Source: Escherichia coli (GTDB lineage Bacteria > Pseudomonadota > Gammaproteobacteria > Enterobacterales > Enterobacteriaceae). From it: a stretch of 226 nucleotides of DNA. Position 1 is the first letter of the stretch. The number at the start of each line of letters is the position of its first letter. Where the stretch lies: the NCBI RefSeq assembly GCF_003334335.1, contig NZ_QOWQ01000236.1. One strand, 5' to 3'. Positions 1 to 226 of this stretch are shown in pieces. The notes beneath the pieces are model-generated. The model was not told the origin of the DNA. It did no database searches and saw nothing but the letters and a program-made list of their open reading frames with translations. The position numbers and the translations under genes were made by a program.

Positions 1-226
1 AGGATCTGACGCCGGGCGAGATGACGGCAGAATCCTACGATGATAACTACCTGGATGATGAAGACGCGGACTGGACCTCGACCGGGCAGGGACAGAAATC
101 TGCAGGTGATACCAGTTTTACGCTGGCCTGGAAACCGGGTGAGGAAGGCCAGAAAGGGCTTATCGCATGGTTTGAAAGCGGGGATGTCAGGGCCTATAAA
201 ATCCGGTTCCCGAATGGTACGGTGGA
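1..226 (+). CDS. V: Phage major tail (tail tube) protein, lambda gpV family; internal fragment, partial at both ends (frame 3, full codons 3..224)
   Basis: Frame 3 is open across the entire window, while + frame 2 has several stops and + frame 1 has stops at 7-9 and 22-24. The 74-aa translation matches, from memory, the lambda gpV segment [74 protein letters not shown] with about 11 substitutions. The leading 'ag' at 1-2 fits the end of a lysine codon preceding D, as in lambda (..VK-DLTPGE..). No in-frame start or stop is present, so the gene extends beyond both edges. Not verified by database search. Confidence 0.9.

Follow-up and report, generated by a model that had tools for sequence, protein, structure and literature searches.

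A fragment of the tail tube gene V from a probable lambdoid prophage of Escherichia coli

Gene V and its product

The stretch of DNA analysed here (226 nucleotides, referred to as the window) is an internal fragment of gene V, which encodes the major tail (tube) protein of the lambda gpV type, and it represents a textbook phage structural gene that is already known. Read in frame +3, the window contains no stop codon and specifies a translation of 74 residues. In the PDB, this peptide is matched by lambda gpV chains over their residues 43/44-116/117 in a gap-free alignment (E values of 3.3e-41 to 1.6e-40; the matching structures include 2K4Q, 6P3E and 7T2E), and a profile search places it in PHROG 41, "major tail protein", with an E value of 4.4e-39. 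The positions of the features discussed in this report are collected in Table 1.

The window was found at 100% identity in seven complete chromosomes among the 5426 complete E. coli genomes searched, those of strains JE86-ST05, JE86-ST02, NCTC9112, DETEC-S792, UCPROB-001, UCPROB-002 and 99RCEF. In all seven it corresponds to bases 128-353 of a CDS of 747 nt for a protein of 248 aa (WP_001625275.1), so that frame +3 encodes residues 44-117 of the 248. Two Pfam domains were detected in the full ORF: Phage_TTP_12 (PF16461) at residues 18-152, where the match covers the entire model (positions 1-135 of 135; E 5.7e-70), and the Ig-like domain Big_2 (PF02368) at residues 161-241 (E 4.5e-11). The alignment of the full protein with the lambda-type tail tube chains in the PDB likewise runs from end to end (E about 1e-106), and the structure of the lambda gpV C-domain, 2L04, matches the C-terminal part (E 6.4e-11). 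Lambda gpV has the same two-domain architecture in a chain of 246 aa, as compared with 248 aa here. The original prediction, which was drawn from the window by itself, took the product to be part of a gpV-like major tail protein, namely the N-terminal domain from which the tube is built, and the assignments made through PHROG 41, the PDB and Pfam all agree with that description; the match to a phage major tail protein that it anticipated from a similarity search was obtained in PHROG 41. It was also correct in placing the end of the window short of the Ig-like domain, as the window ends at residue 117 and the domain begins at about residue 157-161; the C-terminal Big_2/Ig-like domain that it proposed to look for in the full ORF is present there.

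Comparison with gene V of lambda itself, which is 77% identical to the window in DNA and 85% identical in protein sequence (63 of 74 residues), provides information about the reading frame. The nucleotide differences at the first, second and third codon positions number 9/5/37, i.e. they fall mostly at third positions, and the codon changes across the window comprise 31 that are synonymous and 11 that are non-synonymous. This bias shows that the window is protein-coding in frame +3 and has been subject to purifying selection.

Frame -3 likewise lacks stop codons throughout the window, as it does in lambda and in the phage PhiR5_1. As this antisense frame shares its codon boundaries with the sense frame, it can contain a stop only where the sense strand has a TTA, CTA or TCA codon, and codon usage would plausibly account for its openness. 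The ORF listing contained no ORF of at least 50 aa with a start codon in frame -3, and an antisense or overlapping gene in this frame was rejected; the substitutions concentrate at third positions of the sense codons. The substitution pattern also gives no support to a 75-aa ORF in frame +1 of the window. A hidden RNA element was considered and rejected as well, as a search of Rfam at a permissive threshold returned only two snoRNA matches at chance level (15-16 bits, as compared with gathering thresholds of 36-48; E 0.14-0.29).

Table 1. Positions of features in the window, in the chromosomal loci with identical copies of it and in phage PhiR5_1
Feature	Sequence	Position	Strand	Evidence or remark
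Gene V fragment	window	1..226	+	Open frame, PDB, PHROG 41, exact matches in annotated CDS
Full codons 44-117	window	3-224	+	Partial codons 43 (bases 1-2) and 118 (bases 225-226)
beta2-beta3 loop, codons 50-78	window	21..107	+	Lambda numbering via gap-free alignment
Asp61-Asp62, GATGAT	window	54..59	+	Sequence read directly; conserved with lambda
Full V gene	JE86-ST05 (L001)	19874-20620
75-aa ORF, window frame +1	JE86-ST05 (L001)	20040-20267
G and T	JE86-ST05 (L001)	20642-21513; T from 21100		Separate CDSs in RefSeq
G/T slippery heptamer GGGAAAG	JE86-ST05 (L001)	21049-21055		End of G
cos 12-mer	JE86-ST05 (L001)	10780		Between Rz-like gene and Nu1
Layout like that of Stx-converting phages	JE86-ST05 (L001)	1186-7024		Q to holin
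Right-end likely cargo cluster	JE86-ST05 (L001)	30211-36085		Just inside att repeat
hyaA	JE86-ST05 (L001)	36738-37882		Annotated as frameshifted
J	UCPROB-002 (L007)	16673-20142		Frameshifted
J	UCPROB-001 (L011)	16673-20143		Intact
Side tail fibre genes	99RCEF (L005)	30390-31265		Two pseudogene fragments past J
H	PhiR5_1 (L004)	21494-23827 and 23827-24066		Two adjacent CDSs

The tube domain and its predicted assembly

The gap-free alignment to lambda gpV gives the two proteins a common residue numbering, by which the window can be related to what is known of tube assembly in lambda. In lambda gpV the flexible beta2-beta3 loop spans residues 50-78 and is the principal contact element between rings, and the D61/D62 pair within this loop is required for ring stacking and the ring-to-ring growth of the tube (PMC8718954). 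The acidic beta2-beta3 loop, with D61/D62, is present in the window according to the alignment. By analogy to lambda gpV, the N-domain (residues about 1-156) would assemble as hexameric rings stacked around the tape-measure protein, with the acidic loop that the window encodes, including D61/D62, making the contacts between successive rings. The stack of rings would form a flexible, non-contractile conduit through which the DNA leaves the head, and the C-terminal Big_2 Ig-like domain would project from the tube and decorate its outer surface. We infer this assembly mechanism from lambda on the strength of the 85% identity of the N-domain and the retention of the key residues. In lambda, loss of the Ig-like domain of gpV lowers activity by about 100-fold (PMC8718954).

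Gene order in the late region

The genomic context of the window was read from the identical copies in the seven chromosomes, with flanks of 20 kb in three of the loci and 10 kb in the other four. What is reported here on the identity of the gene, its domains, the order of its neighbours and the ends of the prophage applies to genomes that carry the identical sequence, and the mosaic nature of lambdoid phages tempers its transfer to the source of the window. According to the annotation, the gene order in all seven loci is Nu1-A-W-B-C-D-E-FI-FII-Z-U-V-G-T-H-M-L-K-I-J, from which it follows that head, portal and terminase genes are present in each. Directly upstream in every locus are genes for the small and large terminase subunits, a W-like head-tail joining protein, the portal, an S49 protease/scaffold, the decoration protein and the major capsid protein, together with FI/FII. 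The packaging genes are in turn preceded by the lysis genes in all seven. V lies between the gene for the tail terminator U and the chaperone genes G/GT, upstream of H, as seen in the annotation of the seven loci and by tblastn in JE86-ST05; the gene for gpV occupies the same place in lambda, between U and G/T.

The correspondence to lambda was examined further in the JE86-ST05 locus by tblastn with 21 lambda late proteins (Nu1 to Lom). Matches in the lambda order, with identities of 43-92%, were obtained for 20 of them, and the proteins from Nu1 to E are 52-65% identical to their counterparts in the locus. The lambda FI protein gave no tblastn match, and FI is recognized in the JE86-ST05 locus by annotation only. 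Beyond J, the three loci with 20-kb flanks carry side tail fibre genes, which in JE86-ST05 are preceded by lom, and three of the four loci with 10-kb flanks show the beginning of a Lom-family gene past J. The lambda-type heptamer for the -1 frameshift of G/GT, GGGAAAG, is conserved in JE86-ST05, where G ends. RefSeq lists G and T in this locus as separate CDSs and not as a joined G-T product.

Prophage boundaries and the regulatory region

Both ends of the element were inspected in JE86-ST05 alone, and the right end (tRNA-Ser and hyaA) is the same in NCTC9112 and 99RCEF. In JE86-ST05 an element of about 50 kb is inserted at the 3' end of the tRNA-Ser(UGA) gene, serT, between yccA and hyaA. The approximately 50 kb are flanked by the two copies of a direct repeat of 105 nt (65 nt of it exact) that contains the 3'-terminal 60 nt of tRNA-Ser(tga); one copy lies between yccA and the integrase gene and the other at the intact tRNA-Ser gene beside hyaA. 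The integrase, which adjoins yccA, is a tyrosine integrase by annotation and by its matches to PHROG integrases.

The upstream region of the JE86-ST05 element contains genes for the integrase and an exonuclease, dicB and two divergent regulators. It also has the replication genes P and DnaT-like, RusA and the Q antiterminator, and the late regulatory segment contains a DNA methyltransferase gene, three tRNA genes, a gene for a NanS-p-like esterase, and a lysis cassette that is annotated, as is Q itself, with a holin, a lysozyme and an Rz-like lysis protein. The cos 12-mer of lambda, GGGCGGCGACCT, occurs in the interval that separates the Rz-like gene from Nu1.

The host element looks like a stx-negative relative of the Stx-converting phages, situated at serT. 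Its late regulatory order of Q, methyltransferase, three tRNAs (CAT, TCG and TCT), NanS-p-like esterase and holin is that of the Stx phages; at the place where these carry stxAB, the JE86-ST05 element has instead a TerB-family gene (PHROG 632, "tellurite resistance") and a DUF3927 gene. The same interval in 99RCEF contains no annotated gene. The NanS-p-like protein encoded upstream of the holin gene in JE86-ST05 is a SASA esterase of 660 aa. A stx-negative element at serT would be of routine interest for the typing of E. coli prophages.

The right end of the JE86-ST05 element, just inside the att repeat, carries a likely cargo cluster with genes for a Lom/Ail-family outer membrane protein, a YadA-like adhesin (487 aa), a hypothetical protein of 157 aa and a YkgJ-family cysteine-cluster protein. 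The host gene hyaA, for the small subunit of hydrogenase 1, is annotated as frameshifted in JE86-ST05 and intact in NCTC9112 and 99RCEF.

A probable integrated lambdoid prophage and the alternatives

Taken with the boundaries and gene order described above, the window is very probably part of gene V in a lambdoid temperate phage, of the lambda-like type with a long flexible tail, that is integrated in the E. coli chromosome. The original prediction had offered two settings for it, a prophage tail module or an F-type tailocin, and had stated that the window by itself is unable to separate them. We agree with the latter statement, and the choice falls on the prophage, as the inspection of the flanks that had been proposed revealed the head, portal and terminase genes upstream of V in all seven exact-match loci and an integrase gene with an att repeat in JE86-ST05. 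Such a prophage may be able to produce virions, for which the 97.1%-identical late region of phage PhiR5_1 (host E. coli C) provides indirect support.

Not every lambdoid prophage of E. coli is functional, and many are known to be defective. The copy from which the window was sampled might accordingly reside in a cryptic prophage that is not inducible or gives rise to no infectious virions, with V persisting as a remnant that is either decaying or merely competent for recombination. Damage of the kind that this explanation would lead one to look for exists among the carriers of the identical sequence: UCPROB-002 has a frameshift in gpJ, 99RCEF has its side tail fibre genes as pseudogenes, and the early region of the JE86-ST05 element includes pseudogenes (DUF4752, Ea22-like and DUF551) and a truncated YdfR gene. 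E. coli genomes also carry as many as seven paralogues of V. On the other hand, the annotated genes from Nu1 to J are all intact in five of the seven loci (JE86-ST05, JE86-ST02, NCTC9112, DETEC-S792 and UCPROB-001), all seven carry the identical, intact V, and JE86-ST05 possesses cos, int, att, Q and the lysis genes. In addition, the deposited genome of a phage propagated on E. coli C has a late region that is 97% identical. We therefore regard a defective source as unlikely, and the damaged genes in some carriers mean that not every copy is likely to yield infectious particles.

The frameshift in J of UCPROB-002 could represent either a recent inactivation or an assembly error; the gene is intact in the sister strain UCPROB-001. 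In 99RCEF the late-operon genes other than those for the side tail fibres are intact.

The integrated state of the source has itself to be weighed against the possibility that the window derives from a free phage genome or a virome contig. Close relatives have been deposited as phage genomes, and these are 97.3-98.2% identical to the window. The search of the phage records with the window found no identical match, however, the best being 98.2%, whereas seven chromosomes match at 100%, and an origin from a free phage appears very unlikely to us. This is in any case a question of sampling by which the identity of the gene is unaffected.

The remaining alternative is an F-type tailocin, that is to say, a domesticated tail-only cluster that directs the production of capsid-less killing particles. 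The tube protein of the F-type pyocin of Pseudomonas aeruginosa is homologous and forms a flexible, non-contractile tube related to that of lambda, and the window alone is compatible with this reading as well as with a prophage. Tailocin clusters are without head, packaging, integration and replication genes, and one of the F-type would be expected at a fixed place in the chromosome and under host-type regulation. The present locus, in contrast, has all four classes of genes: those for the terminase, portal, protease, decoration protein, capsid and FI/FII lie directly upstream in the seven exact-match loci, and JE86-ST05 provides cos, the integrase, the att repeat and the replication genes P and DnaT-like. 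A related complete phage genome (PhiR5_1) is also on record. The tailocin reading was rejected because of these head, packaging, integration and replication genes, and we assign it a negligible probability.

For the integrated lambdoid prophage, the significance of these results is mainly one of correct annotation: the prophage locus includes a full head module, and V has kept its Ig-like domain.

Relatives and mosaicism of gene V

The phage that is most similar in the window is PhiR5_1 (PV340545; host E. coli C), at the 98.2% noted above; in the late region the identity is 97.1% along a stretch of 21.6 kb that reaches from Rz to the tail fibre. For PhiR12_1 (PV340549) the identity across the whole of V is 98.9%. 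A literature search for PhiR5_1 and PhiR12 found no paper that describes them, and their plaque-forming ability rests on the host field of the GenBank records. The tape measure gene H of PhiR5_1 consists of two adjacent CDSs, and in the E. coli prophages it is a single CDS of 2574 nt; the split could be due to a frameshift or be an artefact of sequencing or annotation.

Lambdoid phages are mosaic, and structural proteins of phages are known to exchange Ig-like modules. Among 146 related phage records, five cover at least 80% of the V gene in a single match, and in the other 141 no single match spans that much of it. For the 29 of these 141 that were listed, the DNA similarity runs out somewhere from nt 426 to nt 551 of the 747, mostly at nt 466-495, which is roughly 115-145 nt past the end of the window and near the boundary between the tube and Ig-like domains. 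In lambda V the DNA similarity ends at about nt 466 of 747, and the protein identity is 85% in the tube domain as compared with 35% in the Ig-like C-domain. The V genes of Stx phages (e.g. VT1-Sakai, AP000400) have about 93% identity in the portion for the N-domain and lose DNA similarity to the present V after about nt 482, which implies that they have a different allele of the Ig domain. The Ig-like domain thus appears, from these sequence comparisons, to be an exchangeable module.

It is possible, although we consider it doubtful, that V is a two-module mosaic in which a tube domain with ~80-93% DNA identity to those of lambda and the Stx phages is combined with a distinct Big_2 allele, 35% identical to that of lambda and present in only five of the 146 related phage records, that may alter binding at the tail surface. 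If this were true, the swapped Big_2 domain would be a small determinant of host interaction (for example, with a cell-surface glycan) that is exchanged independently of the tube.

Lambdoid prophages of this kind are common in E. coli. Homologues of V with at least 80% DNA identity were detected in 1663 of the 5426 complete E. coli genomes, with a median of one copy and a maximum of seven per matching genome; the exact-match strains have between one and four. The several related lambdoid prophages that a single chromosome may harbour offer ample substrate for recombination between prophages.
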